In this document: one piece after another, positions 32,086-54,816 of the stretch | Numbering within the stretch: position 1 is the first letter of the stretch | Layout of the letters: every line of letters starts with the position of its first letter | Assembly: GCA_022711395.1 (NCBI GenBank) | Contig: JAKLFA010000003.1 | Location: 98,509 to 162,508, forward strand | DNA length: 64,000 nt | DNA from: Candidatus Omnitrophota bacterium | GTDB lineage: Bacteria; Omnitrophota; Gorgyraeia; Zapsychrales; JANLHA01 | Direction of reading: 5' to 3' | The notes under the pieces: generated by a model | What the model saw: only the letters and a program-made list of their open reading frames with translations | What the model was told of the DNA's origin: nothing | Database searches by the model: none | Position numbers and translations under genes: made by a program

Positions 32086-32148
32086 CGCATTCTCCTCCAT
32101 AATTTGGGGACAGCGCCCTGTTTCAGCAGATACGTCGCTGCCGCCCGT

Positions 32149-35257: not shown

Positions 35258-35447
35258 GACACTACGACACTAAAAACCTTAAAACAAGACACTGGGACAC
35301 TACGACACTGTGACACTAAAAACCTTAAAACCCTAGTCACTAAGTACCAATGTCTTAGTGTCTTAGTGCCTTAGTGCCTTAGTGTCTTAGTGCCTTAGTG
35401 CCTTAGTGCCTTAGTGCCTTAGTGCCTTAGTGCCTTAGTGCCTTATT
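35258..35447. repeat. Octamer-repeat palindromic element, copy A
   Basis: Left arm of phased GACACT(A/G)N octamers, then AAAACCTTAAAACC, then a central hairpin CACTAAG-TACCAATGT-CTTAGTG, then a right arm of about 11 CTTAGTG(C/T) octamers. About 70 bp are identical to copy C. Confidence 0.9.
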
Positions 35448-35601
35448 TTATGCCGATCGCCTTCAATATCATCCGCCCGAGCTTCCGCTCACGTCCGGAG
35501 GCGGTCAAAGGGACGCCGATCTTTCTGGAAATTTTTCCCTTCAGGCCCGATATTCCCAGCGCCCGTTTCCACGAAAATGAAAATCCGAAATTCTTTCCCA
35601 T
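35443..35601 (-). CDS. Small basic protein (52 aa), hypothetical
   Basis: Not in the ORF track because it is under 60 aa. ATG at 35601 is preceded by a strong GGAGGGG RBS. Manual translation: MGKNFGFSFSWKRALGISGLKGKISRKIGVPLTASGRERKLGRMILKAIGIK. The stop codon lies inside repeat copy A. Confidence 0.4.
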   Translation of the reverse strand: MGKNFGFSFSWKRALGISGLKGKISRKIGVPLTASGRERKLGRMILKAIGIK

Positions 35602-35611
35602 ATTCCCCTCC

Positions 35612-35785
35612 TAAATCCGAATATACAAATTCCAATACACAAATTCCAAACAATAAACAATTACCAAAAAACAAATCACAAACTTCAAACTGTTGTTGAT
35701 CGTGATGTGTGGTTTGCCTGGTGTTGGGGTGTTGTGTGTTGTTCCTTGCTTGGTATTTGAATTTTGTGTATTGTGATTTCCGCTC
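35612..35785. repeat. Long imperfect CA-rich/GT-rich palindrome (second repeat family)
   Basis: CA-rich arm (acaaattccaatacacaaattccaaacaataaacaa...) followed by a GT-rich near-complement. A related CA-rich segment recurs at 30990-31045. Confidence 0.7.
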
Positions 35786-35786
35786 T

Positions 35787-36230
35787 TTACCCTTTCCGCT
35801 TTAACTCCTCCAGACTTTTCAGTCGAAACCCCAGCTCCCAATACCGGCACTCCACGCGGCTGTTCTCGGTGATCTTAATTTCCGTCTCCGGCGACAGGCT
35901 GATCAGCCCGTGCCAGGTCCCTTTATAGAGAATGACCGGTTTGTCGAGCCGGAAACATTCGATCCGTTTGAAATCTTTTTCCGTCGACACAAAGATCAGC
36001 GCCTCACCCGCAACCGGCTCAAAGGTCTCATCAGAAGCCGGATGACTTTCCATGCGGCCGATGGTCTTGTCGCGCAGGACCAGATACGCCACGCGCCAGC
36101 CGTTTTTTTCAGCCACCGTATGAACGATCCGCCAAAGATTGCGCTTCGTTCCCTTCAGCTCTTTCGACGGGTATTCAATGATCTTGCCGTATTGTTTAAA
36201 ATTTTTTCTGCCCGGTGACTGGATCAGCAT
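35787..36230 (-). CDS. Ureidoglycolate lyase-like cupin protein
   Basis: FKQYGKIIEYPSK parallels the AllA N-terminal F-x-x-Y-G-x-x-I-E motif. The TWHGLISLS region parallels AllA's conserved W-H-H segment. Confidence 0.5.
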   Translation of the reverse strand: MLIQSPGRKNFKQYGKIIEYPSKELKGTKRNLWRIVHTVAEKNGWRVAYLVLRDKTIGRMESHPASDETFEPVAGEALIFVSTEKDFKRIECFRLDKPVILYKGTWHGLISLSPETEIKITENSRVECRYWELGFRLKSLEELKRKG

Positions 36231-36390
36231 CCAATTTTCTTTCCATGTGTCTTGTGCCGTGTGTCCGCTTTAATGTCTTAAAGACGTTGAATGCGGCGTA
36301 TCATTAATAGATCGCGCGAAACGTCCGATCCATCTTCCGCGTCCCAGTATACAATAAAGCGCTTTTGAGCAAAAGCTTTCCGTCTTCCGC

Positions 36391-38031
36391 CTATTTTCTT
36401 CCCTCGATCACGCAGATATGCGTATCTGAATCGGTGTAAACCGCCGAACACGCATCCGCCAGAGCATCCCGCATCGTTTCCCAGGTCGCTGGAAAAAGGA
36501 AGATCTTAACCCGGGCCTGCCCCTTCGGCAATTGCGCCGCCAGCTCCTCGGCCTCATGAAGCTCCGTGATCCTGTAGACCCGCTTCTGCGAATACGCCAG
36601 CGCCTCAGGCGGAAGGTCGGTGATCTCAAAATCGAACGATAAACACAGATCATGATACGCGGCGTTCCTTTTGACGAGCTCTCCCACCCTTTTATACTGA
36701 TCATCATCCTCCCCGAAAAACCGTTCGTAACAGAACGCTGTCCTGAAAAAAACTCCGCCCGAAAGAAGAACAAAAAAACTCAGCAGGAACGCCAGATCAA
36801 GCATCTTTCTCCGCCGCATTTCCGGGGCCCGTGTGAAATAAACGACCGGAAATATCCCGAAGGGGATCAAAGAAAAACTCAGGGCCCACTTGAGCGCCGC
36901 GAAGTCATGGATCATCGAATGCTGCTGAAAGACCAGCCCCTGAAGAACACAGGGCAGAACGGTCAGCAGGACCAGATAAACAGCTGTTCCTGCGAGGCCC
37001 CGTTCACGCGCCGGTGTTTTGCCGCGCCCCTTTTCAAACGCGCCATACAAAAACACCATCACCACCGCCGCCACCGTCGACAAGGTCAGGACCAGGCCGT
37101 AACCGTCCACGATGTGCCCGGCAAGATAGTGTTCCAAAAATCCGGGGAAGATGCCCTTCCATCCGACGCCGGACCTCCAGAAGAACGTCTTAAGCAGCCG
37201 GCCGAGGGCACCTGCGGAAAAAATCTGATACGCGTAAATCCCGATGCCCGCAAGAGCGGGGGCCACGAACGTTCGCGCGCTCACGGCGATCTGCCGGACA
37301 CGGCCGGATGCGTCCTTTGAAAAAAACAGCACCCTCAGGACAGCCGCGACCGCGATCACAAAAACAAACAGCCAATCCGTCAGCACGCCCAGGAAAACGG
37401 TCCCGCCCAGCAGGAGGCGGTCAGCGGACTTCAGCGTTCTGTTCAGATAATATTTCATTTCCAGATAAACAAAGATGACAAAAAACAGCATGACCGCCTG
37501 GTCCGCGAAAAAAACATTCTGATGCCAATACAATGTCGGAGGAGTGAACAGATACACCAGCGAAGGCGCCGCGGAAAAGGCAATATTGCCGGGGCTCACG
37601 GCCTTCACGCCGTCGATGATCATGAGCATCAAAGCAAACAGCATCCACGCGATCGCCAGGTGGTTTGCGAGGTTGTAGGCCTGATACAGCCTGATCAGGT
37701 CCTGGATGCCGAAGGCCTTCGCGATCAGGAACGCCGGGATGAACGCTCCGGGAGGATAAGAGACATACGGATCCCTCAGGGCAAGACCGCTGAATTCGAT
37801 CGAATCCGGGTTAAGGACATGCATGAACTTCAGCTTGAACGCGCCGTCGTTAAGCCAATTACGCGTCACGCACACAGAATGCGCCGTCAGCCATTCGTGA
37901 TGGGGCCCCAAAGGCCGGGCGAACCATTTCTGACGAAGAACAACGGAATACATGAAGCACACCCCGATCAGCACAAAGCACAGGGCGGTTATGGCCTTTT
38001 GCCGGTTTATCCCGGATGCGCGCTCTTGCAT
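36391..38031 (-). CDS. Polytopic membrane protein, putative GT-C-type glycosyltransferase
   Basis: More than 10 TM helices plus a C-terminal soluble domain. Sits directly upstream of the FAD-dependent Glf-like gene. Confidence 0.4.
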   Translation of the reverse strand: MQERASGINRQKAITALCFVLIGVCFMYSVVLRQKWFARPLGPHHEWLTAHSVCVTRNWLNDGAFKLKFMHVLNPDSIEFSGLALRDPYVSYPPGAFIPAFLIAKAFGIQDLIRLYQAYNLANHLAIAWMLFALMLMIIDGVKAVSPGNIAFSAAPSLVYLFTPPTLYWHQNVFFADQAVMLFFVIFVYLEMKYYLNRTLKSADRLLLGGTVFLGVLTDWLFVFVIAVAAVLRVLFFSKDASGRVRQIAVSARTFVAPALAGIGIYAYQIFSAGALGRLLKTFFWRSGVGWKGIFPGFLEHYLAGHIVDGYGLVLTLSTVAAVVMVFLYGAFEKGRGKTPARERGLAGTAVYLVLLTVLPCVLQGLVFQQHSMIHDFAALKWALSFSLIPFGIFPVVYFTRAPEMRRRKMLDLAFLLSFFVLLSGGVFFRTAFCYERFFGEDDDQYKRVGELVKRNAAYHDLCLSFDFEITDLPPEALAYSQKRVYRITELHEAEELAAQLPKGQARVKIFLFPATWETMRDALADACSAVYTDSDTHICVIEGRK

Positions 38032-38034
38032 GGT

Positions 38035-39471: not shown

Positions 39472-39517
39472 CCGACATTCTCCATTTTGATACAGGGGCC
39501 GATACAGGCCCGGCGCC

Positions 39518-39772
39518 CTATCTCTTCAACATTCCCTTTATGATCATGCTGATGGCAAAACAGATCAACGCAATGAATATCACGGCCGGCCACGCGAACG
39601 GGCTCAAGAACGCCCTGGCGATCCAATCCAGGACGGTGCACGAATAGGGCTCGCCAAAATGATTCACACATGTGCCGAAAAACATGAAACCATTTTTCGG
39701 TATCCACCACATCAATTGGATACCCGTTATAGCTGCCAATGTGAGAGCGGCTGTTAATACTAACACGAACAT
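39518..39772 (-). CDS. Small membrane protein (84 aa)
   Basis: Two TM helices. GGAGGG RBS upstream. Confidence 0.5.
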   Translation of the reverse strand: MFVLVLTAALTLAAITGIQLMWWIPKNGFMFFGTCVNHFGEPYSCTVLDWIARAFLSPFAWPAVIFIALICFAISMIIKGMLKR

Positions 39773-39824
39773 GCTCTACCCTCCGTCTTCCATTTTCCGT
39801 TTTCTATCTTTCCTCTTCCCTCTT

Positions 39825-40430
39825 CTATTTTTCCTTAAAAGATGTCATGTGCCTTATCAGCTGTATATCTTCCAAAACAAAATTCCCCAGGTCCGCCGCG
39901 AGGGTCGCGATGCCCATCGAATGCTGATCATAAAGCCGGTAGGCCTTGCCGATCTTCTGAAGATCTGTCCGGTAAATGACCTTCACCCTGACCGCCTGGA
40001 TCTTATGAACGCTCGGCCTGCCGTCAAAGTTGCAGAAAAAACAGGACCCCGTCGGGATCACAAACAGAAAAAAATCCTCATCCCCGTATTTTTTGGTGAA
40101 GAACTCGGCTTTTAATTTGATCTTCAAATCCGCCTGGTCTTTGGAGGCGGCGAGCGTATAACCGGCGTCCTGAAGTTGAGCGGGCAAGACCTCATTGAGG
40201 ATATCGCATTGCTCTTGTGCGGATTTAAACAACGGTCCGCCGCAGCCTTTGAGCTCCCAATAAACCGACCGGATGTCCTTAGACGATGCGATCGTGGCAT
40301 CCTTCCCGATGCGATCCTCGGCCTGGAATGTGTAGGTGGCGCAGCTGTTATAAACCAACAGGCTCATCATCGCCAGCACCAGCGGCGACCAGATCAAATA
40401 TTTTTTCACCTTCATCGCTTTACGCTCCAC
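39825..40430 (-). CDS. Lipoprotein, hypothetical
   Basis: Signal peptide plus lipobox (LLVYNSC). Confidence 0.55.
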   Translation of the reverse strand: MERKAMKVKKYLIWSPLVLAMMSLLVYNSCATYTFQAEDRIGKDATIASSKDIRSVYWELKGCGGPLFKSAQEQCDILNEVLPAQLQDAGYTLAASKDQADLKIKLKAEFFTKKYGDEDFFLFVIPTGSCFFCNFDGRPSVHKIQAVRVKVIYRTDLQKIGKAYRLYDQHSMGIATLAADLGNFVLEDIQLIRHMTSFKEK

Positions 40431-40445
40431 ATTTCCATTGTGTTT

Positions 40446-40622
40446 TAATAAGACACTACGACACTATGACACTGAGACACTAAAAACCTTTAAACAAGAC
40501 ACTGTGACACTACGACACTCAGACACTAAAACCCTTAAAACCAGGAAACCAAAAATCTTTTTTCTTTTCACTTTTCACGTTTTCACGTTCATAGTGCCTT
40601 AGTGTCACAGTGTCTTATTTTA
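40446..40622. repeat. Octamer-repeat palindromic element, copy B
   Basis: Terminal inverted repeats AATAAGACACT/AGTGTCTTATT. Two blocks of GACACTNN octamers, each followed by AAAACCTTTAAAC-like spacers, plus an internal TTTTCAC(G) x3 tandem. Confidence 0.85.
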
Positions 40623-40643
40623 ATTAGGCCGCTGCCCCCGATT

Positions 40644-41441
40644 TTATATAATATCAAGAATCCGTTGAATTTGAGGAACGCCGTACTCTGCCCTTCCAGT
40701 AACAACTTTTAAATTCGGCAGCACTTCACACTGACCAAAACTATGAGTATGGCCGCACAATACCGTCATCTCAATCATAGGATGTTTTTCCATAAAATTC
40801 TTCAAGACATTTCCGACAACTTTACAAGAAAAAAACGGCAACCAATCATCTCCTGAAATTTGACCTTCATGCCAAGTCGCTTCTTTAAATGGCGGGACAT
40901 GAGTCAAAACAATGATCCTGTTATGCTTCTTTACTGCAAGAGGAAGAACCCGTCTAAAATGTTCTGCCGCTTCATTAGCCAATTCCTGAATAGCACTTAA
41001 ACGCAGGGTCCGATCCCTCGTCTTCAATTCATCGATCAAATAAAAATCATTCAGTTCTACAGAACTACGGTAAAAATCTCCAAACCGTCCATCAGCCCAG
41101 GAATCATGCCCGATCAAAACCGTGTGAGTCGATAAGCTTACAGAGTCGACTGCATTTAACCAAATTAAATTCTCAGAATTTTTTACCAGATCAGCAACCA
41201 TTGATCGGGTTCCCTTGATCGATCCCTCATAATAATCATGGTTACCAAGAACAAAATAGATCGGTCGCTTTAAAACAGATTCCGCATGCTTAAGATAATC
41301 AATGATCTTATCGGCTTCGCCAATATCTCCCGAAACAAAAAAACAATCAACCGTTTCCTCAGATACCAGCAACAGGAACTCTTCCAGTTGATCGTGTTTT
41401 AAAAAATTCAAATGAATATCTGTTAACCAAGCCGCATTCAT
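40644..41441 (-). CDS. Metallophosphoesterase (calcineurin-like)
   Basis: DIHLN, GDIGE, GNHDYY and GHTH motifs. AT-rich codon usage marks it as part of the foreign island. Confidence 0.8.
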   Translation of the reverse strand: MNAAWLTDIHLNFLKHDQLEEFLLLVSEETVDCFFVSGDIGEADKIIDYLKHAESVLKRPIYFVLGNHDYYEGSIKGTRSMVADLVKNSENLIWLNAVDSVSLSTHTVLIGHDSWADGRFGDFYRSSVELNDFYLIDELKTRDRTLRLSAIQELANEAAEHFRRVLPLAVKKHNRIIVLTHVPPFKEATWHEGQISGDDWLPFFSCKVVGNVLKNFMEKHPMIEMTVLCGHTHSFGQCEVLPNLKVVTGRAEYGVPQIQRILDII

Positions 41442-41493
41442 TTTTATTAAAATCCCGCCCTCATGTACGTAAAAAGCTCTCCAGCCGTCTCTT

Positions 41494-42285
41494 CTATGTT
41501 AATTGTGCGATCAATTCTTGAAACCGTTCAAAAATATCCGTCCTTAAATCATCAATAAATACATCCGGTCCATTTTCTTTTTCAACCATCAAACAACCGG
41601 GGCTTGAATTACGCTTAAAATATTTTTTCAAATTCTTTGCCGCTTGCGGCAACTCACCCCTTTTATAATATTGATGAAACTCTTTCAAAATAACATCAAG
41701 GTCGGGAGCATAGCGCAATATAAAGTAGATATAAAAAAGATCTTTCGCTTGTTTTAATTCGTCCTCACGCTCAACAAACACCGCTGATTTATGATAAATA
41801 AAAGCTGAGGGTCTAGGACATAATAAAGAATGGGTTTTATCTCTTCGTGCATCTTTGACGCTGACTGGCGCTGAATGACTCAATAAGAAATCGAAGTCGG
41901 GAAGTTTGTTAAGGCTCATTTGAACCCCAACGAGTTTTTCGACATTCTCTACCGGAATATCCGTCGAACTGATAAAGTCAATGCGAACTTTCCCGCTCTT
42001 AAATAAAACAACCGGATACATCCGATTCATATCTAGATGGCGTTCAGTATAATCAAAGTCCGACAAAATCTGAAAGATGGTTTTCTTATGAACTCGCGGC
42101 TTCTTTGGGCTCACACCAAAATCAATATCCAATGTTGTAACCGGGTTAACAGTAAAATTTTTCCAGATAAAGCGGGGATAAACATACGCCAACCATCCCC
42201 CAACAAGCGTAAGCTCACCGAGATATTCATTCAAATCATCAAGCACACAAAAAAATAAATCTTCTGACTCCATATTATTGGCCAA
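41494..42285 (-). CDS. Nucleotidyltransferase-fold protein, AbiEii-like toxin candidate
   Basis: LTLVGGWLAYVY...R...TLDIDF is an NTase-fold G-G...D-x-D pattern. It overlaps the upstream partner gene by 11 nt. Confidence 0.45.
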   Translation of the reverse strand: MANNMESEDLFFCVLDDLNEYLGELTLVGGWLAYVYPRFIWKNFTVNPVTTLDIDFGVSPKKPRVHKKTIFQILSDFDYTERHLDMNRMYPVVLFKSGKVRIDFISSTDIPVENVEKLVGVQMSLNKLPDFDFLLSHSAPVSVKDARRDKTHSLLCPRPSAFIYHKSAVFVEREDELKQAKDLFYIYFILRYAPDLDVILKEFHQYYKRGELPQAAKNLKKYFKRNSSPGCLMVEKENGPDVFIDDLRTDIFERFQELIAQLT

Positions 42286-42958
42286 GGGTTTTTCCTTCCT
42301 GTTCCAGCTTTTCTTTTAAGAACTCCGACTGCTCTCTCCCCCTGGGCTGAAAATGATATAAATCTAAAAATAACTGCAAATTGGAAACAACAGAATATCC
42401 TTCGATCTTTTGACTGTTTGCAAAAGTGCTTGTTTTATAATACGGCTCAATAAAATGCACATTTCCCCCGGAAACAAGCTCTTTCAAATCAAGTTTCTGC
42501 CGGACATTAAGAATATCCTTATCCCAGTTATCCGTTCTCAAATAAATGTATACTTGATCTGTTTTCACATAAGACGTTAATAAATTAGCACCTGAATGAA
42601 GCGTCAGCGCATAGGTATGATTATTAAGAACGGCTTTCATTTTTTTCAATATATCTTGGTCGTGAGTGTAATACGTCTTGACTGTATTAAGCTCAAACTT
42701 ATAAAATTGCGTCCATTCTTTGATAAGCTTGTCAGGGTAAGTCAACACTGTATGACTCTCTGGTCCTTTTTTGATACGCTCCGCATATCCCTTTTGAGCG
42801 ATGATCTCTAAAACCTGCTGTGTTAATCCGAGACTAACCCCTTCAGGCCCGTTGAAATCTCGCACGACCCATTTGCGATCAGGCTCTTGAAGCATCTTCC
42901 TAAGAATTAATGTCGCCTTATCAGCAAATATGTTCTTTTTATATGTCTTTTTGTTCAT
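42275..42958 (-). CDS. wHTH regulator, AbiEi-like antitoxin candidate
   Basis: Likely start MNKKTYKK at 42958, with a wHTH-like N-terminus (ATLILRKMLQEPDRKWVVRDF...GVSLGLTQQVLEII). Nested operator palindromes lie immediately upstream. Confidence 0.4.
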   Translation of the reverse strand: MNKKTYKKNIFADKATLILRKMLQEPDRKWVVRDFNGPEGVSLGLTQQVLEIIAQKGYAERIKKGPESHTVLTYPDKLIKEWTQFYKFELNTVKTYYTHDQDILKKMKAVLNNHTYALTLHSGANLLTSYVKTDQVYIYLRTDNWDKDILNVRQKLDLKELVSGGNVHFIEPYYKTSTFANSQKIEGYSVVSNLQLFLDLYHFQPRGREQSEFLKEKLEQEGKTLGQ

Positions 42959-43018
42959 AATGTTCACCAATCTATCAATGTTCACTCTTTAGTGAACAAT
43001 ATATAATATATGAACATT
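42959..43018. promoter_or_regulatory. Operator-like nested inverted repeats
   Basis: Half-sites TGTTCAC at 42961 and 42979, and GTGAACA/TGAACAT at 42992 and 43011. TGTTCAC-TCTTTA-GTGAACA is a perfect 7-bp IR. TATAAT-like sequences fall between the sites. Confidence 0.55.
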
Positions 43019-43022
43019 AATG

Positions 43023-43184
43023 TCAAGCGCTCTGGACATACTCACCGTTCTGCTCTTCCTGCACGATGCGCCGGCCCGTTTCCCAGGCAAACCTGACCTG
43101 CGCCTCCCGCGCGTTGGTGTACAGAGCGGAAATATCCTCGACGAGTTTTTGGAACCTGTTTTTAGCTGGAAGGTTGGTGGGCAT
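43023..43184 (-). pseudogene. Truncated N-terminal remnant of a DUF1016 (YhcG-like PDDEXK nuclease) gene
   Basis: A GC-rich 162-bp segment inside the AT-rich island. It encodes MPTNLPAKNRFQKLVEDISALYTNAREAQVRFAWETGRRIVQEEQNGEYVQSA, matching the conserved DUF1016 N-terminus (..NxxLvxLYWxIGrxI..eq.G). It stops abruptly at the AT-rich operator sequence. Confidence 0.5.
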
Positions 43185-43201
43185 GGGCGGTCACCTGTTA
43201 T

Positions 43202-44404
43202 TTACGAATATGTTTCCTTTGTAAAACGCCAATCATATCCATAAGCTTTTTTACGATACCCATATCCTGTTGTACATGGTTTGCGCAAACAAACAGAACT
43301 AATTGATGAAACACAGTTCGTATTTTTAACTTTGCCTTTTTCTACTAGCCACTTTGCCGCCTCATGCTGGCTTGAAAATACTTTCAAAATATTCCCCGAC
43401 TGCAAATCAATCATACAAACTTCTTTACTTGTTTTCGCTGCAGCAGCTTTAGCTCTTTTTTGTGCATTTGCTTGCGCTTCTTGAGAATGTTTATTCTTCC
43501 ATTCTTTTAATGATGCTTTACGCTTTTCATTAGCTTTTTGGCTTGTACGCGAACTTATTAGCTTTTCCTGCCAAGCCTTATATTTTTCTGGGTTTTCTTT
43601 AGCCCACTTTTTAAAGCCAGCTTTTCGTTTTGCTTGGCATTCAAGAGTTTTAATTTTTTCGTGACTTTTCTTTTTTGCTTCAGCATATTCCTTGGGGTTT
43701 TCCTCTCTCCACCTTACAATACGCTTACTAAACATTTCACGATATTTTTCTGAGCTCATGACTTCTTTTATTCTTCGACTACGCGCGCGAAGTTCTGGTG
43801 TATCACCCGATCGAAAAGCTTTTTTGGATGCTTCAAGCATCGGTTTAAACTGCTCAGGATGATTTTTTATATACTCACGTTTCTTTTCGCTTGTTTCTGC
43901 GATGGATGGATGCTTAGTTGTTCCACCGCCGCCAGCAACAAGATTAAGGCATTTTTCATCAGACAAAAGGTCTTTATCGACAATAGTCGCTTCAAGTTGT
44001 TCTGCTTCCTCAGCGGTCTCACATTTTGCGATATAATAACGCGCAAATCGATCTTTATATTTTTTAAACTTATTTACAAATTTTAGTCCAGATCCTTGAT
44101 ATCGTTTTAATTGAGACCATGTGGGCCGATTAGCTTTACCAATATAATATTCGCCGCTTTCCCAGTTTATTTGAATATAAATTACTCTATAATAACCATC
44201 ACTTTCATTTCGTTTACGAACAAGTTCACTTGGGGTTAAAACATCAAACCAACGGTTTTTTATTGCAATACGCTGTTTATTGAAACCCCATTTTGCTGAA
44301 TTACGTTTTGAATCAAAAAAAGCGGACAGATTGTCATCCAAAGACAATTCAGCCGGATTAAATTCCTGCCAAACTCTGATATTTTCATTAATTGTTATTA
44401 TCAT
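43202..44404 (-). CDS. GIY-YIG homing-endonuclease-like protein with a C-terminal IENR1/NUMOD-like DNA-binding repeat
   Basis: N-terminal YYRVIYIQINWESGEYYIGKA (GIY...YIG). Lys/Glu-rich linker. C-terminal KVFSSQHEAAKWLVEKG...TTGYGYRKKAYGYDWRF matches the intron-encoded nuclease repeat pattern (F-x-S-x-x-EAA...G-Y-x-W-x-F). Confidence 0.6.
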   Translation of the reverse strand: MIITINENIRVWQEFNPAELSLDDNLSAFFDSKRNSAKWGFNKQRIAIKNRWFDVLTPSELVRKRNESDGYYRVIYIQINWESGEYYIGKANRPTWSQLKRYQGSGLKFVNKFKKYKDRFARYYIAKCETAEEAEQLEATIVDKDLLSDEKCLNLVAGGGGTTKHPSIAETSEKKREYIKNHPEQFKPMLEASKKAFRSGDTPELRARSRRIKEVMSSEKYREMFSKRIVRWREENPKEYAEAKKKSHEKIKTLECQAKRKAGFKKWAKENPEKYKAWQEKLISSRTSQKANEKRKASLKEWKNKHSQEAQANAQKRAKAAAAKTSKEVCMIDLQSGNILKVFSSQHEAAKWLVEKGKVKNTNCVSSISSVCLRKPCTTGYGYRKKAYGYDWRFTKETYS

Positions 44405-44574
44405 GCTTTAATTGAAATAAAAGTGACGCGCACATTTATTGACTCATTTAAAAAAGGTGTACGTCACGCGTCCCGTTTATTATTTATTCATTTTATCTCG
44501 TGGCTCCGGATTCTTCTGCATAAGCCCATTGAATTCGTCTGCAGTCTTACAGACCAATTTTTTTACCCTTCATT

Positions 44575-46239
44575 TTATTGCTTACACCAAGCGGCGATGG
44601 TATTAATATTCTTCTTTATTGCCGCAGAGATTTGATCATCGCCAAGCCCATCAATTTTAATTAAGACACTGCTTGCCTTATGATCAGCATTCCGAAAAAT
44701 TCCAAGTTCTTCTTCAAATGATTTATCGAATACCGCTAAAGCATCCTCCATAATCCAAGAACACGGTCTTTTGTTATCAGACTCGTCTTTCTTTCTACCA
44801 TCTAGGTCAAAAACGGTAAAATATGGTATTCCAAAGGCTTTGCATAATAGCTGGTAATATGGGATCTTCGACTTCCCATTTGCACTGATAATGGTCACGT
44901 CACAAAGACTTTTATTAATCTTATTAGCCAAAACCGGCATTCCATATTTCTCAGCGGGTCCTTCAACAATTAAACATTTACGGGCAAAGAATATTTGATT
45001 ATCCTCACGAAAGAATACTGTTTTATGCTGATGAAATTTTTTAATCTCATCGAGGTGCTCCGACACTTCCTTGTTTTCTATAACCTCATTCAGCTTTTCT
45101 GCCTCCGGCGTATTCTTAAAATCTCTGTTGAACCGACTTATTGAATCCCAATTGGCGATACTTATAAAACAATCCGATTGCGTTGTGTAAACTATTTGAG
45201 ATGATGATTTTTGAAATTCCTTGAACAATCTCGACTGCAATTGAGGATGCAAATGAAGTTCCGGCTCATCTATAAGAAATACTATTTCCCCTCTCGAAAG
45301 ACTACTAATAATCTCTAATAAAAAATAAGCCAATAAAATGGAGATACCGGAACCGAGGTTTTTCTGGTCAATTTGATTCGACCCATCGCGTAATGAGAAA
45401 AAAGATTTTAAAAACGGCTGTTCGATATCCAATAAACTCAGCTCTAGATTTTCGCACTCAATACCAACAAAATCTTTTAGCTTCTCTCCTAGCGGCCGCA
45501 TAATGCGGTCATTTTTTGGATCAATCACAGTGGCGATAACCTGGCTGTAAAAATCTTCCCACTTCTGCACGATATCCACCTGAACCCATTTATTCCTGTA
45601 TCGCCAGTTTAAATCCTTTATTATTTTACTCAAAAGCGTATTAAAACCGGTACTTGCTTCACTTTCTCTGTCACGATCAAAATAAAATATGTTTGGATAA
45701 TTTATGAATTCATTCTGCAGTGATAACCTTTGCTGTGTGAACTTAAAGACAGAGTTAGCTGTTTTACGCGGAGATTCATATCCTTGATCAGTCTTAAGCA
45801 CTTTATCTGGGATTTTGGTTGATAGCGCATCTAAATAAATGCACTGAAGCTCCTCTTTAGAGTTATACAAAATTGGTACAGCATATTTCTCTGTCACGAA
45901 CGGATCAGACAATGCTTTTCCTCCCGCGGCCTGTTTTCTTCTATGCGCTGAAAACACGACGCTTCGACACAAAATATCCTGAGTGGTATACCCATCGGGT
46001 ATCTTACACAAAAAGGGCTTATCGAAATATACTGTTATCCCCAAATCTCCTTCGTCGCTATTATTGAAATCTTGCTCAGTGATATATGCATATCCTGATG
46101 AAGTTGCTAAATTAATAGCTTCTAAAATCGTGGTTTTGCCACAACCGTTTTCTCCAATTAAGGCATGACATTTTTGAAAATCGACATCAACTTTCTTAAA
46201 ACATCGAAAATTATTTATTTCTATTCTAGATATTGCCAT
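44575..46239 (-). CDS. OLD-family ATP-dependent endonuclease (ABC ATPase plus Toprim), apparently stand-alone (class 1-like)
   Basis: Walker A GENGCGKTT. ABC signature and Walker B region (VFLIDEPELHLHP). C-terminal Toprim (LIVEGPAEKYG ... FTVFDLDGRKK). Confidence 0.8.
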   Translation of the reverse strand: MAISRIEINNFRCFKKVDVDFQKCHALIGENGCGKTTILEAINLATSSGYAYITEQDFNNSDEGDLGITVYFDKPFLCKIPDGYTTQDILCRSVVFSAHRRKQAAGGKALSDPFVTEKYAVPILYNSKEELQCIYLDALSTKIPDKVLKTDQGYESPRKTANSVFKFTQQRLSLQNEFINYPNIFYFDRDRESEASTGFNTLLSKIIKDLNWRYRNKWVQVDIVQKWEDFYSQVIATVIDPKNDRIMRPLGEKLKDFVGIECENLELSLLDIEQPFLKSFFSLRDGSNQIDQKNLGSGISILLAYFLLEIISSLSRGEIVFLIDEPELHLHPQLQSRLFKEFQKSSSQIVYTTQSDCFISIANWDSISRFNRDFKNTPEAEKLNEVIENKEVSEHLDEIKKFHQHKTVFFREDNQIFFARKCLIVEGPAEKYGMPVLANKINKSLCDVTIISANGKSKIPYYQLLCKAFGIPYFTVFDLDGRKKDESDNKRPCSWIMEDALAVFDKSFEEELGIFRNADHKASSVLIKIDGLGDDQISAAIKKNINTIAAWCKQ

Positions 46240-46301
46240 TACGCCCTCTTATTATTGAACTTATAAAAATAAAGGCAACGGACACATTTGCTACGTTCCC
46301 T

Positions 46302-46652
46302 TTATGGCCGCTTTTCCATCCTGCCTTTGACCAGCTTGGCCGGATACTTCCTGGCGTTCTTCTTTATCTTCCTGAGGACCGCCTTTTCCAGGTCGATCCC
46401 GTATAGGCCGCAAAACCCCATCAAATAAATGGCCACATCCGCGACCTCATCCTCGATCTCAAATTTTTTGCGTTTGTCTTTCAAGATCTGAGCCGCCTCT
46501 TCAGCCGAATTCGTCCACTGGAAATGCTCCATGAGCTCCGCCGCTTCGATAGACAGGGACATGCTCAAATTTTTTGGGGTATGGAATTTTTCCCAATCCC
46601 GTTCTTTAACGAATTTTTTTATTTTATCCTGGATCAAAGATATTTCATTCAT
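46302..46652 (-). CDS. MazG-like nucleotide pyrophosphohydrolase
   Basis: EAAELMEHFQW and EIEDEVADVAIYLM match the MazG EExxE/D motifs. Start taken at the Met with a GGGGGAA RBS (the track ORF extends to 46712). Confidence 0.8.
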   Translation of the reverse strand: MNEISLIQDKIKKFVKERDWEKFHTPKNLSMSLSIEAAELMEHFQWTNSAEEAAQILKDKRKKFEIEDEVADVAIYLMGFCGLYGIDLEKAVLRKIKKNARKYPAKLVKGRMEKRP

Positions 46653-46776
46653 GCAATTCCCCCGATCAGAAAATAATAAAGGCCAGGGAGCTCCTGGCCA
46701 CAATACAGTCATTACGTTTTTTATATCTCAACTTTAAAAAAGCGTCCGTCATGTTTTTTGTTTTTTCCTATTTTTT

Positions 46777-47916
46777 TTAGGAATCATATTCACTCTTAAA
46801 ACTCCCTAGAGAATGCGTATTAATTTTATAAACAGACTCTTCTATTTTATAAATAATAACATTATCAGAATTAAATTCCTGCAGATGGCTTAATGTTGCA
46901 ACCTGACCCGGAACCAATTGAAGTTTTTTTCTTAAAATCCAATTCCCCAATTCTTTATTGGGATCGCTCATTAAAGCTTTACATCCCTGCTGACAAACCT
47001 TTGCTGTCATTTCCCTCCCATCATCTGTAATAAGCTTAAACTTCTGGTCTTTCGGCGGGAAAAAGCCGGGCTTCACCTGATGGATAATCTGTGGAATCGG
47101 AATATAAACTTCATCCGGATGACGAGACCGTCCGCCCGCATTCCATTGGTTAAGGCCGGATTTCAATGAGACTTTTCCTGTTCTTGTACTGTAAAGAGGC
47201 AGAATCACATAATCTGTTTTCTTGATAAGACTGCGATCTACAGTATCCGGCTCACTAAGTTCATCAAGGGCTGCATTTAAAAGCGCCTTGTTTAAAAACC
47301 CGTTAATTTCTACAGCATCAAAATATTGCGCATAACTAAAATCCATAAGAAGAACACTCTTGGATATATTGAATGTATATTTAAAATACTTATCTTCAAA
47401 AGCCACTGACCCCCGTTTTTTTTCGATCCCTCTAATTGAAGGAAGATCAATAGGGATCATAGGACACTCTGCGATATATATTTTCCCTACATCCCGAACA
47501 ACATAATGATAAACGGTGTTTTTAAGGCCGTACGCCTTTACCGTTTCTTCTATCCGCTGATTCCTATATAAAGCAACCTGCTTTATTAAATGATCATCAT
47601 TTGTTAAATCTAATGGGAACTTCGCGCGGTTGTTAAACTCAGCCACTTTTTCTGTCCCGCGCATTGCTGGTTTTGCCAAAAAAGTTTTTACGCCTATCCC
47701 ATCTGTGATCTTAACAGCATCAACCGAAACATCTTTTCGGGTTTCGTCAGAGGCTTCAAAGGCTTTGCAGAAAATTTTTTCAACAACCCGATAAGGCAGA
47801 TACGGTTTTGTATTTCCGCTGAATATTGGACTAAGCTGAGCTGTGCCTAATATAAGCTGTTTGTATTTTTTTCTCTGAGGGGATGATTGTTTAGGATAAA
47901 AGGGGTCAAAAAACAT
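46777..47916 (-). CDS. Putative type II restriction endonuclease (partner of the adjacent C5-methyltransferase)
   Basis: 379 aa with no methyltransferase motifs. Position is immediately downstream of the dcm-like and vsr genes in the same orientation. AT-rich. Confidence 0.5.
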   Translation of the reverse strand: MFFDPFYPKQSSPQRKKYKQLILGTAQLSPIFSGNTKPYLPYRVVEKIFCKAFEASDETRKDVSVDAVKITDGIGVKTFLAKPAMRGTEKVAEFNNRAKFPLDLTNDDHLIKQVALYRNQRIEETVKAYGLKNTVYHYVVRDVGKIYIAECPMIPIDLPSIRGIEKKRGSVAFEDKYFKYTFNISKSVLLMDFSYAQYFDAVEINGFLNKALLNAALDELSEPDTVDRSLIKKTDYVILPLYSTRTGKVSLKSGLNQWNAGGRSRHPDEVYIPIPQIIHQVKPGFFPPKDQKFKLITDDGREMTAKVCQQGCKALMSDPNKELGNWILRKKLQLVPGQVATLSHLQEFNSDNVIIYKIEESVYKINTHSLGSFKSEYDS

Positions 47917-47950
47917 TATCCAGCTGTTCTTTCCATTAGAGCGTTCTGCT

Positions 47951-49012
47951 TCATCCTGCAGCCGGCTCTAATACATTTTGAACTCGATAGGATCCGGCAG
48001 CATTCTGATATTTCATATCTAAAGCAATCCTAATCTTTTCCGCGATACGGCGTATTACAGGAACACTCACAGAATTTCCCATCTGCTTATAAAGATGCGC
48101 TGAGGCTATATCGGGAAGACGAAAATCATCGTCAAACCCCTGCAGGCGGGCACATTCACGCGGAGTCAGCTTGCGAATGCCGTAATTATCACGGACAAGC
48201 GGAACATTATGGCCTCCGGTTCCCATATTTGCTGTCAAAGTCGGGCATACTCCGCTTTTATTCTCCCGAAGATAAACCCTCCGCCACTGATAAACAGTAT
48301 TCTTAGATTTCATCTGTTCATTCAGAACTTTATAAAAACCGCATTTCTCAGTATAGTAATATTTTCTGTCAACTTTCTTTTGTTCTAAAATGTCTCGACG
48401 GACCGTTTTTGTTAATTCACTCTTTTGAGGAAAAGAAAAATTATCAGAACAACTCCCGTCTCCTCTTACCCATGCAGATTCGTCTTGAAAACCGACAATA
48501 TAAATTCTTTCTCTGGTCTGCGGAATATTGCCGTACTCCATTGTATTAAGAACTTTCGGAATAAAAGAATAGCCCGTATCTTTAATTGTTTCTTCCATCA
48601 CGCGGAATGTTCTGCCGTTGTCATGGGCAATAAGATTTTTGACATTTTCTAAAAGAAATGCTTTCGGCTTAAGACTTGTAATTATTTTCATCGTTTCAAA
48701 AAACAAATTACCCCTGGAGTCTTCAAATCCCTTTCTGTAACCGGCAATAGAGAATGCCTGACATGGAAAACCGGAGGTAATAACATCCGTCTTATCAAGA
48801 AAGCTCATCTTCTGATTAACCAAATCATGAACATCGTCTGGAAAGAATTTATGGGAAAAATTGGATTCGTAAGTGATCTTTGCATTCTTATCAAATTCAT
48901 TTGCCCATAAAAGCTGAAAACCTGCCTGTTCAAAGCCTCGGCAGATCCCGCCTATTCCTGCAAATAAACTTCCGACCGTATACTTTGCTTTTTTTACCAT
49001 GTTATGATTCAT
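47951..49012 (-). CDS. dcm: DNA (cytosine-5)-methyltransferase
   Basis: Motif I FAGIGG, motif IV PCQAFS, motif VI ENV. Confidence 0.9.
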   Translation of the reverse strand: MNHNMVKKAKYTVGSLFAGIGGICRGFEQAGFQLLWANEFDKNAKITYESNFSHKFFPDDVHDLVNQKMSFLDKTDVITSGFPCQAFSIAGYRKGFEDSRGNLFFETMKIITSLKPKAFLLENVKNLIAHDNGRTFRVMEETIKDTGYSFIPKVLNTMEYGNIPQTRERIYIVGFQDESAWVRGDGSCSDNFSFPQKSELTKTVRRDILEQKKVDRKYYYTEKCGFYKVLNEQMKSKNTVYQWRRVYLRENKSGVCPTLTANMGTGGHNVPLVRDNYGIRKLTPRECARLQGFDDDFRLPDIASAHLYKQMGNSVSVPVIRRIAEKIRIALDMKYQNAAGSYRVQNVLEPAAG

Positions 49013-49070
49013 TTCAATCCTCCATTTTAAGGGGGAAATTTAAGGAATGAGGATTGAAGCATGTTACCAC

Positions 49071-49505
49071 TCATATGTGTGGAATGTCAATACTTTTCTT
49101 TTCTTCAAACAACGGCTTTAATTTAGAAAAAACTTTTAATTCCTTTTTTACTTCACACTCCCAAACTGTAATAATACGCCAACCATCTTTTTTTAACGCT
49201 CGTTTATTTATTTTATCGCGTTCTAAATTTCTTTCAAGTTTCGGAACCCAATATTTTTTATTTGTTTTTGGTACATTTGCCCGGCGGCATCCTTTATGGC
49301 AATGCCAAAAACATCCGTGAACAAAAACTACAGTTTTATATTTAGGAAGAACTATATCCGGCTTCCCGGGAAGACTTTTTACATGAAGCCCGAATCTAAA
49401 TCCCACCCTATGAAGAATACTTCTAACTATCTTTTCGGGCTTCGTATCCGCGGCCCGTATGCGGGACATATTCCAGCTTCTTTTTTCTCCGCTCAAATGG
49501 TCCAT
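49071..49505 (-). CDS. vsr: Very short patch repair endonuclease
   Basis: SWNMSRIRAADTKPE N-terminus. FVHGCFWHCH zinc motif. Length 144 aa. Confidence 0.9.
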   Translation of the reverse strand: MDHLSGEKRSWNMSRIRAADTKPEKIVRSILHRVGFRFGLHVKSLPGKPDIVLPKYKTVVFVHGCFWHCHKGCRRANVPKTNKKYWVPKLERNLERDKINKRALKKDGWRIITVWECEVKKELKVFSKLKPLFEEKKSIDIPHI

Positions 49506-49620
49506 ATGTCAGTTCATCACTAATATTTTCTGTATGATTATACCATTAACAAACTGCTGTAAAATCGTTTATTCTTTATTTCGAGATGTCTGCCATATTA
49601 AATTCATCAGATTTTTCCTG

Positions 49621-51207
49621 TCACCAATCAATCGGAAAGTAGTCTTTGAGGAATTTGCCGCACCAGTGTTTGCCCGTGAGGATGCCGCTAAAGAACGGAT
49701 CGCACACCCGCGCCGCGCCGTCCACAATGTCCAAGGGCGGCTGAAAATCATGCTGCTCCTGCTTAAACGCTGCCAGGGCGGCCGGATCTTCGTCCGTCAC
49801 CCAGCCGGTATCGACCGCGTTCATGTAGATGCCGTGCCCGGCCAACTCTGCCGCGGCCGTGTGCGTCAGCATGTTGAGCGCGGCCTTGGCCATGTTGGTG
49901 TGGGGATGGCGTTCGCTTTTTTTAAAACGCAAAAACTTCCCCTCCATGGCCGACACATTGACGATGTGTTTCTGCCCCGTCACGTCGCGCTTCATCATCG
50001 GGATGAGCCGGTTGCACAAGACAAACGGCGCGATCGCGTTCACCAGCTGAAGCTCGAGCATCTCAGCGGTCGGAACTTCGCCGAGCTTTAGCCGCCAGCT
50101 GTTGGTCGCACGCAAATCCACCTGCTGAAGATCCGCGTCGAGCTTTCCGCTGGGGAAAACTTCCTGAGTGTTCAGCGCATGATCATACGCGTAGGGGATC
50201 TGCGAGAGTGCGGCGGATGCGCGCAACCCTATCCCCGGCGTTCGGCCCGTCCAGCTGACCGGCAGGCCTTTCTCTGAGCTGAGGGCGTCTTTTGAAAAAG
50301 ACGCGAGCCTTTGCTTGCATTCTTCAAAATCATCCATCAACGAAAGCGCCTCGATCGGAATTTCAAAATGCGCCTTCGCTTCATTGGCCATCAGGTGTTT
50401 ATAAAACCCCGGCGGGCGCCTCACGGTCTGGGCCGCGTTGTTGATCAAAATATCCAGGCGGTCATATTTTTGTTCCACAAAAGAACAGAAGATCTCCACG
50501 CTCGGTGTATGCCGCAAGTCCAGCCCGTAGATGTGCAAACGGCTTTTCCAGTTTTCAAAATCCTCTTCTTTGGAATACCTGAGCGCCGAATCCACCGGAA
50601 AGCGTGTGGTGGCGATGACCCTCGCTCCGGCGCGCAGCATCATGAGCGTCGCCTGATATCCGATCTTTAAACGCGAGCCAGTGATGAGCGCGACCCGCCC
50701 CTCAAGAGAGGCGGTCTGAAAGCGTTTTTGATAATTCAACTCTGCGCACGACGGGCACATGGAGTCATAAAAAAAGTGGAGTTTGGTGTACTCGGCCTTG
50801 CAGACATAACAGTTGCGGGCGGATTTCAGCTCTGGTGGTGGCGCCTTCGGGGGCTGCGGCTCCTCCGGCGTTTGCGGGTCGTGGGCCTGCGCCTCTTCAA
50901 ACGCAATTTGTTTGGGCGCGCTGAACACTTTGGCCTCGCGCGCTTTGCGGATGCCTGTGTTGGCGCGGGCCATGCGTTCGTGCGTGCGGGTGCGCTGGCG
51001 TTTGGCTTTGCGGATCTCGCGTTTGCGCGCGACGATCTCATCGCCGTTGGGCTGCGCGAGCCTCCCTGCGGCTTTCAAAAGCTGGATGCGTTCTTTTTCA
51101 GATAATTGAGCGAGCTTGGAGCTGTCTTCAACTAAACCTTCAAGGATCGAAATGCATTCCGCGATTCGTTCAGGTGATGGAGTGATCGGATTTTTTGGGG
51201 TGGTCAT
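49621..51207 (-). CDS. SDR-family oxidoreductase with an N-terminal charged/zinc-ribbon extension
   Basis: [25 protein letters not shown] Rossmann motif and NNAAQ. N-terminal CYVCK...CPSC. Confidence 0.75.
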
Positions 51208-51239
51208 AGGGGAAGATTATAGCATGACTTTTAACAAAA

Positions 51240-51370
51240 GACACTAGGACACTACGGCACTACGACACTAAAAACCTTAAAACCCTAGTCACTAAGTACC
51301 AATGTCTTAGTGTCTTAGTGCCTTAGTGCCTTAGTGCCTTAGTGCCTTAGTGTCTTAGTGCCTTAGTGTA
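51240..51370. repeat. Octamer-repeat palindromic element, copy C
   Basis: AGACACTAGGACACTACGGCACTACGACACTAAAAACCTTAAAACC, then a hairpin with loop TACCAATGT, then 8 CTTAGTG(C/T) octamers. It overlaps the last codons of the STAS-like gene. Confidence 0.9.
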
Positions 51371-51716
51371 ACAGCCATTCCAACGCATCGGCCCGATCGC
51401 GAAAACTGTGGACGTTAGCGCCCCGGTTGACCGAGATGTTTTCAGCGAATCGCATATTTTGTTCAAGCGTGTCAAGGAAGGCGACTTTCAGATCGCCGAA
51501 ATGCGTCTTTGAATGGGACCCCAGCTCTGCCTTATCCAGTTCTGGGATGGAGCCTTTCAGATGTGTCAGATCAATGAGGATCTTATTTTTGCCGCGGGCG
51601 CGGGCCTCCTCCGCCGCGGTCTGCCCGCTTTCCAGAAACCGCTCAAAAGAATATTTGCCCTCCAAGATCACCTCTAAATAAAGTTCTTCCTCAATGGTTG
51701 TCACCTTGAAACTCAT
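51363..51716 (-). CDS. STAS/SpoIIAA-like domain protein (DUF4325-like), hypothetical
   Basis: 117 aa with a KILIDLTHL core. Bracketed by repeat copies C and D. Confidence 0.45.
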   Translation of the reverse strand: MSFKVTTIEEELYLEVILEGKYSFERFLESGQTAAEEARARGKNKILIDLTHLKGSIPELDKAELGSHSKTHFGDLKVAFLDTLEQNMRFAENISVNRGANVHSFRDRADALEWLLH

Positions 51717-51786
51717 AGAGCATGCCCCCTGTTGTTGGAATAGAAAATATTATAAAACATGAAGCGCGGAAGGTAAAGCATTTAAC

Positions 51787-51954
51787 TAAGACACTGAGAC
51801 ACTACGACACTGAAAACCTTCAAACAGGACACCCTGACAATACGGCACTAGGGCACTAAAATCTTAAAAACATTAAAACCAAACAGTCAAAAAAAAGGCA
51901 CCAAGAGCTTCCAATGTCTTGGTGCCTTAGTGCCTTAGTGTCACAGTGCCTTAA
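51787..51954. repeat. Octamer-repeat palindromic element, copy D (more diverged)
   Basis: TAAGACACTGAGACACTACGACACTGAAAACCTTCAAAC ..., a central perfect hairpin GGCACCAAG-AGCTTCCAATGT-CTTGGTGCC, then CTTAGTGC octamers. Confidence 0.85.
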
Positions 51955-52516: not shown

Positions 52517-52546
52517 TTTCCCCTCTTTCTATTTTTGACTTTCCCT

Positions 52547-53188: not shown

Positions 53189-53248
53189 TTCGCCTCTCTT
53201 TCTATTTTTGACTTTCCCTCTACACTTTACGCTTTACCCTTCGCAAGC

Positions 53249-54763: not shown

Positions 54764-54816
54764 ATTTAGTGCTACAATATCCCTCCATATCCACCTCTTG
54801 GACAAGGTGTTAAATT

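Follow-up and report, generated by a model that had tools for sequence, protein, structure and literature searches.

The window analysed here is a stretch of 64,000 nt from a Candidatus Omnitrophota bacterium (contig JAKLFA010000003.1, positions 98,509 to 162,508 of the forward strand). It contains a family of four intergenic elements, A to D (Table 1), all of which lie between co-directional genes on the minus strand. The elements are palindromes of 130-190 bp, in which GRCACTNN octamers in phase are combined with a conserved spacer and a hairpin at the centre. The lineage agrees with a protein of the window that is 100% identical to one named from an Omnitrophota metagenome-assembled genome, and with the closest SDR homologs, which bear the same name. 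Four homologous elements had been described at these positions in an earlier reading of the sequence alone (hereafter the original prediction), and the family proved to be real. In a scan of the window, GACACTNNGACACT with at most one mismatch gave 27 matches against 0.13 expected, and all 27 are located within elements A to D. The hexamer core GRCACT is invariant in the octamers, and the 2-nt linker is variable. Within the window, the spacer AAAACCTNAAA is confined to the four elements, and a profile hidden Markov model (HMM) of the conserved half matches these elements alone. No fifth copy was found with the profile HMM in the window and 16 kb of extra flanking contig (~80 kb in total); the four copies span 17 kb. 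Elements A and C, ~16 kb apart, had been claimed to share an identical core of about 70 bp, and they contain an exact match of 73 bp, starting from 35312 in A and from 51264 in C.

The original prediction had considered an assembly artefact as an explanation that would remove the family. This is not the case, as the elements are reproduced base for base in independent assemblies. Element A is identical in four of them: the assembly of the window's 538-kb metagenomic contig (JGI 3300010429), ERZ27257480, 3300025902 and ERZ795054, the last being compared only as far as its contig extends. Elements C and D are identical in three independent assemblies. Short-read contigs often end inside the elements, and the elements break short-read assemblies. 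There is no sign of phase variation in unit number; array lengths are equal across samples of the same strain. Element C may have ~4 octamers, not 8, in the 3300010356 population (L006, 1291-1323), and element A may have one extra GGCACTAA in ERZ761563 (L270, 1-110). Both length differences fall at contig ends only, where an assembly effect is possible, and they are unreliable.

In the orientation of the genes, the layout of the elements is 5'-(GGCACUAA)n, a small hairpin or terminator, and one or two modules of GUUUUAAGGUUUUU-(NNAGUGUC)3-4 toward the 3' end. The original prediction was right about the complementary octamer arms, whose order needs to be read in the orientation of the genes. 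Because all neighbouring genes are on the minus strand, the (GGCACUAA)n array is the 5' arm, and the side with GACACTNN and the spacer is the 3' arm. The spacer is conserved as described, but it is not separate from the octamers: it is itself in octamer register (GUUUUAAG GUUUUUAG). TRF detected CTTAGTGC with a period of 8 in 11.5 copies in element A (96% match) and in 7.9 copies in element C. Each arm has 3-11.5 octamers, with period 8, and the two arms can be unmatched in length (11.5 vs. 6 units in A, 3 vs. 8 units in B).

The central hairpin of A is weak alone (-13.6 kcal/mol, z -2.2). The second spacer of A constitutes the U-tract after a 125-nt hairpin (49 pairs, -49.7 kcal/mol). In C, the TAA stop of the SpoIIAA-like gene sits in the first octamer, and the U-rich tail UUUUGUU marks the end of a hairpin of 115 nt with 47 pairs and -52.1 kcal/mol. 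D has a canonical terminator with a stem of 10-12 bp and U8. The conserved central hairpin is missing from B, where a different repeat, of the AACGTGAA type, forms the centre, and the two spacer and octamer modules of B constitute a 46-bp higher-order repeat according to TRF. The terminal inverted repeats of B are AATAAGACACT and AGTGTCTTATT; all copies are palindromic by construction. The units at the centre of B (40565-40589) represent a third unit family, AACGTGAA/TTTTCACG, detected with TRF. The same units are observed just upstream of the SDR gene in the relative L253 (9985-10010).

Table 1. Elements A to D and associated features. Positions are those of the window; upstream and downstream refer to the orientation of the genes.
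Feature	Position	Strand	Description	Upstream gene	Downstream gene
Element A	35258..35447	-	Between the 52-aa ORF stop (35443-35445) and the 168/170-aa secreted-protein gene start (ATG 35224/35230)	Conserved 52-aa ORF (open reading frame)	Secreted 168-aa protein
A, 5' arm	35354..35445	-	11.5 tandem GGCACUAA/GACACUAA octamers (TRF)		
A, small central hairpin	35337..35360	-	CACUAAG-ACAUUGGUA-CUUAGUG; inside the 73-bp A/C match; same sequence in C at 51289-51312		
A, 3' side	35258..35333	-	Two modules of U-rich spacer (GUUUUAAGGUUUUU) and NNAGUGUC octamers		
A, U-tract	about 35272-35287				
Element B	40446..40622	-	Three 5' octamers, divergent centre of AACGUGAA-type repeats, two spacer and octamer modules; flanked by the stop of the metallophosphoesterase gene (40644) and the start of the lipoprotein gene (40415; start set by ortholog)	Metallophosphoesterase (last gene of the AT-rich defence island)	Lipoprotein
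Element C	51240..51370	-	Eight 5' octamers, A-type central hairpin, one spacer and octamer module, then UUUUGUU	SpoIIAA-like gene	SDR gene
C, U-tract	about 51228-51239				
Extended -10-like TGCTATAAT	51216..51224	-	Directly 3' of C, upstream of the SDR gene; read from sequence		
Element D	51787..51954	-	~4.5 5' octamers, canonical terminator, then two degenerate spacer and octamer modules; flanked by the stop of the PEP-CTERM gene (51962) and the start of the SpoIIAA-like gene (51716)	PEP-CTERM gene	SpoIIAA-like gene
D, central intrinsic terminator	51889..51926	-	GGCACCAAGA / UCUUGGUGCC stem, then U8; -18.7 kcal/mol, z -4.7; stem ends at the U-tract		
D, U-tract	about 51889-51896				
Sigma-70-like promoter TTTACC-17-TATAAT of the SpoIIAA-like gene	51749..51777	-	Promoter scan; just 3' of D, marks the 3' boundary of D		
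Conserved basic 52-aa microprotein gene	35443..35601	-	Stop abuts A; 96 homologs, 59-100% identity		
c-di-GMP-I riboswitch aptamer	13106..13198	-	55.6 bits, above the Rfam gathering score		

C overlaps the stop codon of the SpoIIAA/STAS-like gene (51363-51365), A overlaps that of the 52-aa ORF, and B is located at the boundary of the AT-rich island, all as originally claimed. The stop codon of the upstream gene is contained in C and directly adjoins A, and it precedes B and D by 15-20 nt. Promoter-like sequences are present shortly downstream of C and D. The TGCTATAAT site next to C is a putative promoter element of the SDR gene, judging from its sequence and position; the promoter scan did not call it, as there is no -35 match. 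Homolog lengths suggest that the SDR gene starts at the second ATG. The sequence block of the TTTACC-17-TATAAT promoter next to D is conserved in the relatives L253 and L254. Between A or B and the next gene, no promoter was called; the ribosome-binding site (RBS) and start codon follow within ~30 nt. A candidate weak promoter inside the 3' module, TTGTTT-17-TAGTGT, was not called by the promoter scan.

A long RNA hairpin or attenuator was one of three functions proposed in the original prediction, next to a transposable element and an array of protein-binding sites, and it is the best supported of the three: the gene-sense strand folds better, hairpins with U-tracts of the terminator type are on that strand, and structure is conserved at orthologous sites with replaced sequence. 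The sense RNA of element A has a folding energy of -94.3 kcal/mol (z -7.9), against -64.5 for the antisense RNA. Six of the seven family members (A, B, C, D, the D-site element of L253 and the heptamer element of L254) are more stable in sense than in antisense by 14-28 kcal/mol. The sense RNA folds better because G.U pairs form on the sense strand: there are 8-15 of them on the sense strand and 1-4 on the antisense strand. The duplexes contain 48-82 pairs. Among the transition mismatches between arms, 44 are wobble pairs in sense and 19 in antisense. The flanks of the elements are A-rich at the 5' side and U-rich at the 3' side. In A, C and the D-site element of L253, a hairpin of 115-150 nt closes directly before a U-rich tract. 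A G+C hairpin with a U-tract, on the transcribed strand and after a stop codon, is found in D; A and C have long hairpins extending to U-rich tracts, and B shows no such structure in a simple stem/U-tract test.

The D site is occupied in several relatives. In L253, whose SDR is 91% identical, a GRCACT-type element is kept with a different terminator stem (-20.6 kcal/mol). In L254 and L255 (87% identical), the same layout of arm, terminator and arm is built from GCGTARA heptamers and from A/C-rich and G/U-rich tracts. The element of L254 is a 340-nt hairpin of -167 kcal/mol, and it contains a third terminator (-25.1 kcal/mol). The D-site terminators of the window, L253 and L254 thus have three different stems, each followed by a U-tract (-18.7, -20.6 and -25.1 kcal/mol; z -4.7 to -7.0). 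As the same layout is formed from unrelated heptamers in L254, base pairing appears to count more than the sequence of the unit. The 5' heptamers of L254 continue from the Lys/Arg codons of the tail of the PEP-CTERM gene, so the 3' arm must be the derived, secondary inverted copy. The window itself has GCGTARA heptamer arrays, at 52545-52559, 53218-53239 and 34720-34755 (minus strand), which overlap the Lys/Arg-rich C-terminal codons and stops of PEP-CTERM and secreted-protein genes. The palindromes with heptamer arms in the relatives appear to have been formed from arrays of this kind.

The A site is conserved in L265, where the flanking protein is 80% identical. It has a symmetric palindrome with 4 units, the spacer AAAACUUUAAAC, the centre, GUUUUAGGUUUU, and again 4 units. 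The element of L265 is kept after the 52-aa gene as in the window, and the arm lengths differ. A relative with 70% identity has neither the 52-aa gene nor an A-type element. GACAC-type units after the stop of the 52-aa gene are seen in three genomes: the window, L265 and L274. In L274, the 52-aa gene is followed by two GACAC units and a hairpin with a U7 tract, and the hairpin is weak (-5.3 kcal/mol, z -0.2). In L276, the 52-aa gene is followed by a heptamer-armed hairpin and a U-tract, and in L273 it has no following element. L253 and L254 have no element C at the orthologous site, which is taken up by other hairpins or a Fic gene. At the B site of L265, there is only a half-element on the sense strand, and the site is a synteny breakpoint.

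Homologs of the 52-aa protein are named from Omnitrophota, Deltaproteobacteria, Rickettsiales and Flavobacteriales, and the protein has no match to a Pfam or NCBIfam family. It was considered as a cognate binder of A and rejected, as it is widely conserved and also encoded where the element is lacking, so that nothing links the two specifically. Another low-complexity palindrome is observed upstream of the 52-aa ORF, at 35627-35779. Its 5' arm is A/C-rich and its 3' arm is G/U-rich, and it consists of 7/14-nt units in 57-nt arms that are 70% complementary. The same type of tract also surrounds the terminator of the heptamer element in L254.

The island bordered by B (40644-49505) is AT-rich (36-44% GC) and of the defence type. 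Its genes encode a metallophosphoesterase, AbiEii/AbiEi, a 400-aa unknown protein, an OLD-family ATPase-TOPRIM protein, a MazG-like protein, an NgoFVII-type restriction enzyme, a Dcm methylase and Vsr. In relatives, a Fic gene occupies the equivalent place after the SDR gene. In L254, the 3' end of the SDR gene is present as a direct repeat of ~33 bp on either side of the downstream Fic island (3412-3444 and 4826-4860), resembling attL and attR. These repeats suggest that the Fic island was integrated site-specifically into the end of the SDR gene. A duplicated 3' end of the SDR gene was searched for at the far side of the window's island and was absent there.

With roughly an even chance of being correct, the best explanation is that these elements are modular terminator or attenuator hairpins specific to this uncultured lineage, the Candidatus Omnitrophota clade, and that their arms evolve by slippage and by module and inverted duplication. 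The elements would be transcribed together with the upstream gene, and their main roles would be those of an intrinsic terminator or attenuator and of a hairpin at the 3' end. The 5' array (GGCACUAA)n in the gene-sense RNA would begin at the stop codon. The central hairpin would follow, which in D has the form of a canonical terminator with U8, and then one or two 3' modules, each with a U-rich spacer (GUUUUAAGGUUUUU) and complementary octamers (NNAGUGUC). Each 3' module, once transcribed, could zip onto the 5' array and form one longer hairpin, again before a U-rich tract. The outcome would be a nested, fail-safe, or "telescoping", terminator. In RNA that is read through, the imperfect duplex of 50-80 bp is a plausible site for RNase III cleavage or for blocking exonucleases. 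The arms are presumed to be labile: units of 7-8 nt would slip, modules of 46 bp would be duplicated, and inverted duplication would occur about the terminator core; sequence exchange between copies would take place by recombination, not by transposition. The conservation of structure at orthologous sites where the sequence has been replaced supports this explanation.

Several observations weigh against the terminator hairpin. The central hairpin of A and C is weak by itself, and B has no stem ending at a U-tract in a simple stem/U-tract test. If the terminator of D is efficient, few transcripts would contain both the 5' and the 3' arm, and the complementarity of the arms needs another explanation. 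A and B cannot be full terminators unless a promoter is hidden in the 3' module; at most they attenuate. The minus strand is G-rich, and a replication-strand mutation bias could give the G.U asymmetry without selection. Owing to homogenisation of the arrays, the counted wobble pairs did not arise independently of each other. Relatives also have arrays with a single arm (L265, 1090-1180), and one family member in L254 (4985-5095) is opposite in orientation to the neighbouring genes.

Other explanations start from some of the same observations. The arms could be a neutral by-product of mutation, formed by slipped-strand expansion and hairpin-templated inverted duplication, with only the small central terminators being functional. 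This is rather doubtful. Unmatched arm lengths in A and B, unit numbers varying freely between relatives, different unit families at the same site, the single-armed arrays, the heptamer 5' arm derived from coding sequence, and several unrelated low-complexity palindromes in the same intergenic regions (35627-35779) are all consistent with it. However, complementarity, including that of the spacer, has been kept over species-level divergence, the G.U bias is toward the sense strand, and the long hairpins end precisely at U-rich tracts. The same paired type also persists at orthologous sites, as in Xanthomonas (PMC4692102). The duplexes of 48-82 pairs are in turn compatible with an intercistronic double-stranded RNA, whose mismatch at every 8 bp would make it a processing site for RNase III or a translational or attenuation switch. 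Such an RNA would uncouple the cistrons and in this way regulate the genes that follow A (secreted protein) and B (lipoprotein). These two elements are inside apparent operons, ~30 nt before the next RBS and with no promoter called in between. A precedent is reported for Haemophilus, a simple sequence repeat with an RNase III-targeted element in the 5' untranslated region (PMC12721329). Since C and D have their own downstream promoter-like sequences, and the arrays of one strain keep their length from sample to sample with no sign of phase variation, this kind of regulation is unlikely to be the main role.

Mobility and protein binding are more difficult to reconcile with the data. It is quite improbable that the elements are non-autonomous and move like a MITE (miniature inverted-repeat transposable element) or a REPIN, by a transposase acting in trans on the octamer inverted repeats. 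The terminal inverted repeats are there by construction, and 73 identical bp are shared by A and C at a distance of 16 kb. A family member is seen at a non-orthologous site, inverted, in L254, C is missing from its orthologous site in L253 and L254, and B is at an island edge and a synteny breakpoint. The TTTTAAT strings at both sides of B, noted in the original prediction, are not a clean target site duplication (TSD): they overlap the inverted repeat of B, and the 3' one matches the spacer-like end of B itself (CTTGTTAAAAG vs. CTTGTTTTAAGG). Across the elements, the flanks share only A/T-rich strings of 4-6 nt. The 3' string ('TTAAAA') is homologous to the internal spacer, and the 5' string belongs to the end of the 52-aa coding sequence and is also conserved ahead of a different hairpin. 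No clean empty site was found, as alternative alleles carry other hairpins. The four copies are within 17 kb of the ~80 kb examined, and A and D have been retained at their sites and have diverged there. Pfam searches of the main ORFs and precomputed annotations of overlapping loci, which cover the window partially, revealed no transposase. BLAST with element A gave no plasmid or phage match. That the elements are transposition-competent MITEs, as had been suggested, is not supported. A DNA-level array for a multimerising regulator, such as a ribbon-helix-helix (RHH) protein reading the hexamer every 8 bp in direct and inverted orientation, is very improbable. Arrays of this kind are bound by MetJ (8-bp met boxes), omega (heptads) and ParG (4+4-bp boxes). 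The invariant GRCACT core with a variable 2-nt linker, the occurrence of both direct and inverted arrays, the single-armed arrays in a relative and the position just upstream of genes fit this model. It does not account for the same architecture built from unrelated heptamers at an orthologous site, the complementarity of the spacer between arms or the G.U type of strand asymmetry; there is no linked regulator gene, and the arrays start in or at stop codons, not around promoters. More speculative, and only remotely probable, is a code of octamers read by a multimerising factor, either RHH-like on DNA, or a repeat protein or a ribosome-like Shine-Dalgarno/anti-Shine-Dalgarno interaction on RNA. 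Its binding would compete with the hairpin and make a tunable switch. Each 5' unit contains UAAGG. If such a switch existed, the downstream secreted-protein and lipoprotein genes would be controlled by it, and the unit number would set the gain.

Comparison with known classes supports some exclusions of the original prediction. The elements are not CRISPR arrays, which have direct repeats of 24-48 nt with unique spacers of similar length in between: the 8-nt units of A to D are contiguous, there are no unique spacers, and the arms are mutually complementary. Nor are they typical repetitive extragenic palindromic (REP) sequences or bacterial interspersed mosaic elements (BIMEs), which are short, 20-40 nt, high-copy palindromes, while A to D are 130-190 bp in length, low in copy number in the ~80 kb examined and made of tandem units. 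No Rfam family was reached; only generic miRNA-precursor models gave 22-35 bits, against thresholds of 87-100. Integron attC sites were rejected, as the ends are only loosely GTTRRRY-like (GTTAAAT in D, GTTAAAA in A and C) and lack the inverse core (RYYYAAC). The Pfam annotations include no integrase, and the copies are 0.4-10 kb apart with multi-gene blocks. A sigma-54 promoter, suggested by TGGCAC in GGCACT units, was rejected by inspection as the spacing is wrong.

Scans of viral sequences found no family member, only unrelated (GGCACTAA)n arrays in phage contigs and one chance match in a coding region. The phage arrays, in the IMG/VR contigs L278-L283, are perfect (GGCACTAA)4-13 arrays of unrelated phages with no inverted partner, and some are beside iteron-like (GCCTTTCATT)n and (GGGCAGAGTTA)n. 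A metagenome scan with a degenerate spacer pattern yielded chance matches only, none with neighbouring octamers. The pattern used for the genome collection, GRCACTNNGRCACTNNGRCACT, was too general, with ~140 chance matches expected in 596 Gb, and the source genome was not among the matches listed.

A separate REP-like palindrome of ~22 nt, ATAGGGGACAGCGCCCTAATTA, is present in the window at 32106-32125 and, as an inverted pair, at 54710-54767. In L274, three copies of ATAGGGGACAGCGCCCTAATTA (2221, 2291 and 3007) flank a Y1-transposase gene resembling REP-associated tyrosine transposases (RAYTs), at 2345-3004, and no octamer elements flank this gene. The best NCBIfam match of this gene is NF047646 'REP-associated tyrosine transposase', with 57 bits, below the 80-bit cutoff. 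The combination of ATAGGGGACAGCGCCCTAATTA and the RAYT-like gene looks like an Omnitrophota REP/RAYT system. In the window, the Pfam searches and precomputed annotations, with their partial coverage, revealed no Y1 gene. For the octamer elements, the RAYT-like gene of L274 gives no support to mobility, as it is flanked by this different REP-like sequence.

Tandem-repeat-armed hairpins have been noted for decades without an agreed function, and the Omnitrophota family is a natural experiment. At one orthologous site in three related genomes, the layout is kept, the terminator stems are swapped, and the repeat unit has changed from octamer to heptamer in one. These swaps at the level of the site, together with a 3' arm that in the heptamer case is an inverted copy of sequence beginning within the upstream gene, point to base pairing around a terminator and an origin by inverted duplication; they speak less for a ligand that is specific to the sequence. 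If the idea of a nested telescoping terminator is true, it would account for a whole class of neglected repeats and would offer strong modular insulators for synthetic biology. The elements also have practical relevance, as they interrupt short-read assemblies, and one of them marks a synteny breakpoint and an island border.

Several known classes of non-coding element share some features with A to D. MITEs are likewise small, non-coding and bounded by inverted repeats, but no TSD is seen at A to D, no transposase was found in the partially covered window, and neither dispersed copies in the ~80 kb examined nor clean empty sites in the relatives were observed. Eukaryotic Foldback elements likewise have long inverted termini of short tandem repeats, with arms variable in length. 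REPs, BIMEs and REPINs are extragenic palindromes at the 3' ends of genes as well, with a mosaic of short motifs and roles as terminators or mRNA stabilisers. However, REPs are single hairpins of 20-40 nt, high in copy number and linked to RAYTs, and the repeat of this clade corresponding to them is ATAGGGGACAGCGCCCTAATTA, not the octamer elements. With intrinsic terminators, including bidirectional ones with A- and U-tracts, D and the sites of the relatives share a textbook hairpin and U-tract, and A and C have long hairpins to U-rich tracts. The stems of the elements are 5-10 times longer than those of intrinsic terminators, have periodic mismatches, are nested or modular, and are built from tandem units.

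Octamer-armed intergenic hairpins are also observed in other phyla. The matches listed from the genome-collection scan include Chloroflexales, Melainabacteria, Myxococcales, Nitrospinota, Bacteroidales and Gemmatimonadales. The loci are L012 (5490-5602), L089 (6945-7001), L032 (5978-6094), L072, L085 and L121. The arms of the Chloroflexales hairpin are three copies of GGCACTGA against 11 copies of TCAGTGCC, and the rpsB-tsf spacer of a Melainabacteria metagenome-assembled genome has a tandem-unit hairpin with a U-tract. The hexamer common to these hairpins was imposed by the search pattern and does not imply homology.

The novelty of the element type had been overstated, as short-tandem-repeat hairpins have already been described in Xanthomonas (PMC4692102) and cyanobacteria (PMC2670836). 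Like them, A to D have units in the range of 6-9 nt, at least three to four copies, an intergenic location, convergent arrays able to form a stem-loop and a position at stop codons. In Xanthomonas, GGGAATC heptamer arrays are located at or over stop codons between aligned ORFs, with ~70-75 convergent inverted pairs per genome (Rehm et al. 2015, PMC4692102). About 185 dispersed copies are present per genome; array lengths differ between species with the type preserved, and the function was left unresolved (PMC4692102). Both families have tandem units of 7-8 nt, typically in at least four copies, between aligned ORFs, with inverted pairs and stem-loop potential. Elements A to D differ in that they are not G-rich and have no G-quadruplex potential, have a period of 8 with a variable 2-nt linker, contain a conserved spacer, a central hairpin or terminator and 46-bp modules, are seen as four clustered copies in ~80 kb, and belong to another phylum. 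The cyanobacterial short tandemly repeated repetitive (STRR) heptamers form intergenic hairpins, for example between hupS and hupL, for which transcript stabilisation or termination was proposed (PMC2670836). They share with A to D the short tandem units forming hairpins between genes and the occurrence as lineage-specific families. They have a period of 7, not 8, and are high in copy number genome-wide, whereas four copies of the octamer element are seen in ~80 kb; no architecture of spacer and core has been described for them, and they have no sequence similarity to A to D. The closest precedents of the Omnitrophota elements are therefore the cyanobacterial STRR hairpins and the GGGAATC inverted pairs of Xanthomonas, of which A to D are a local variant.

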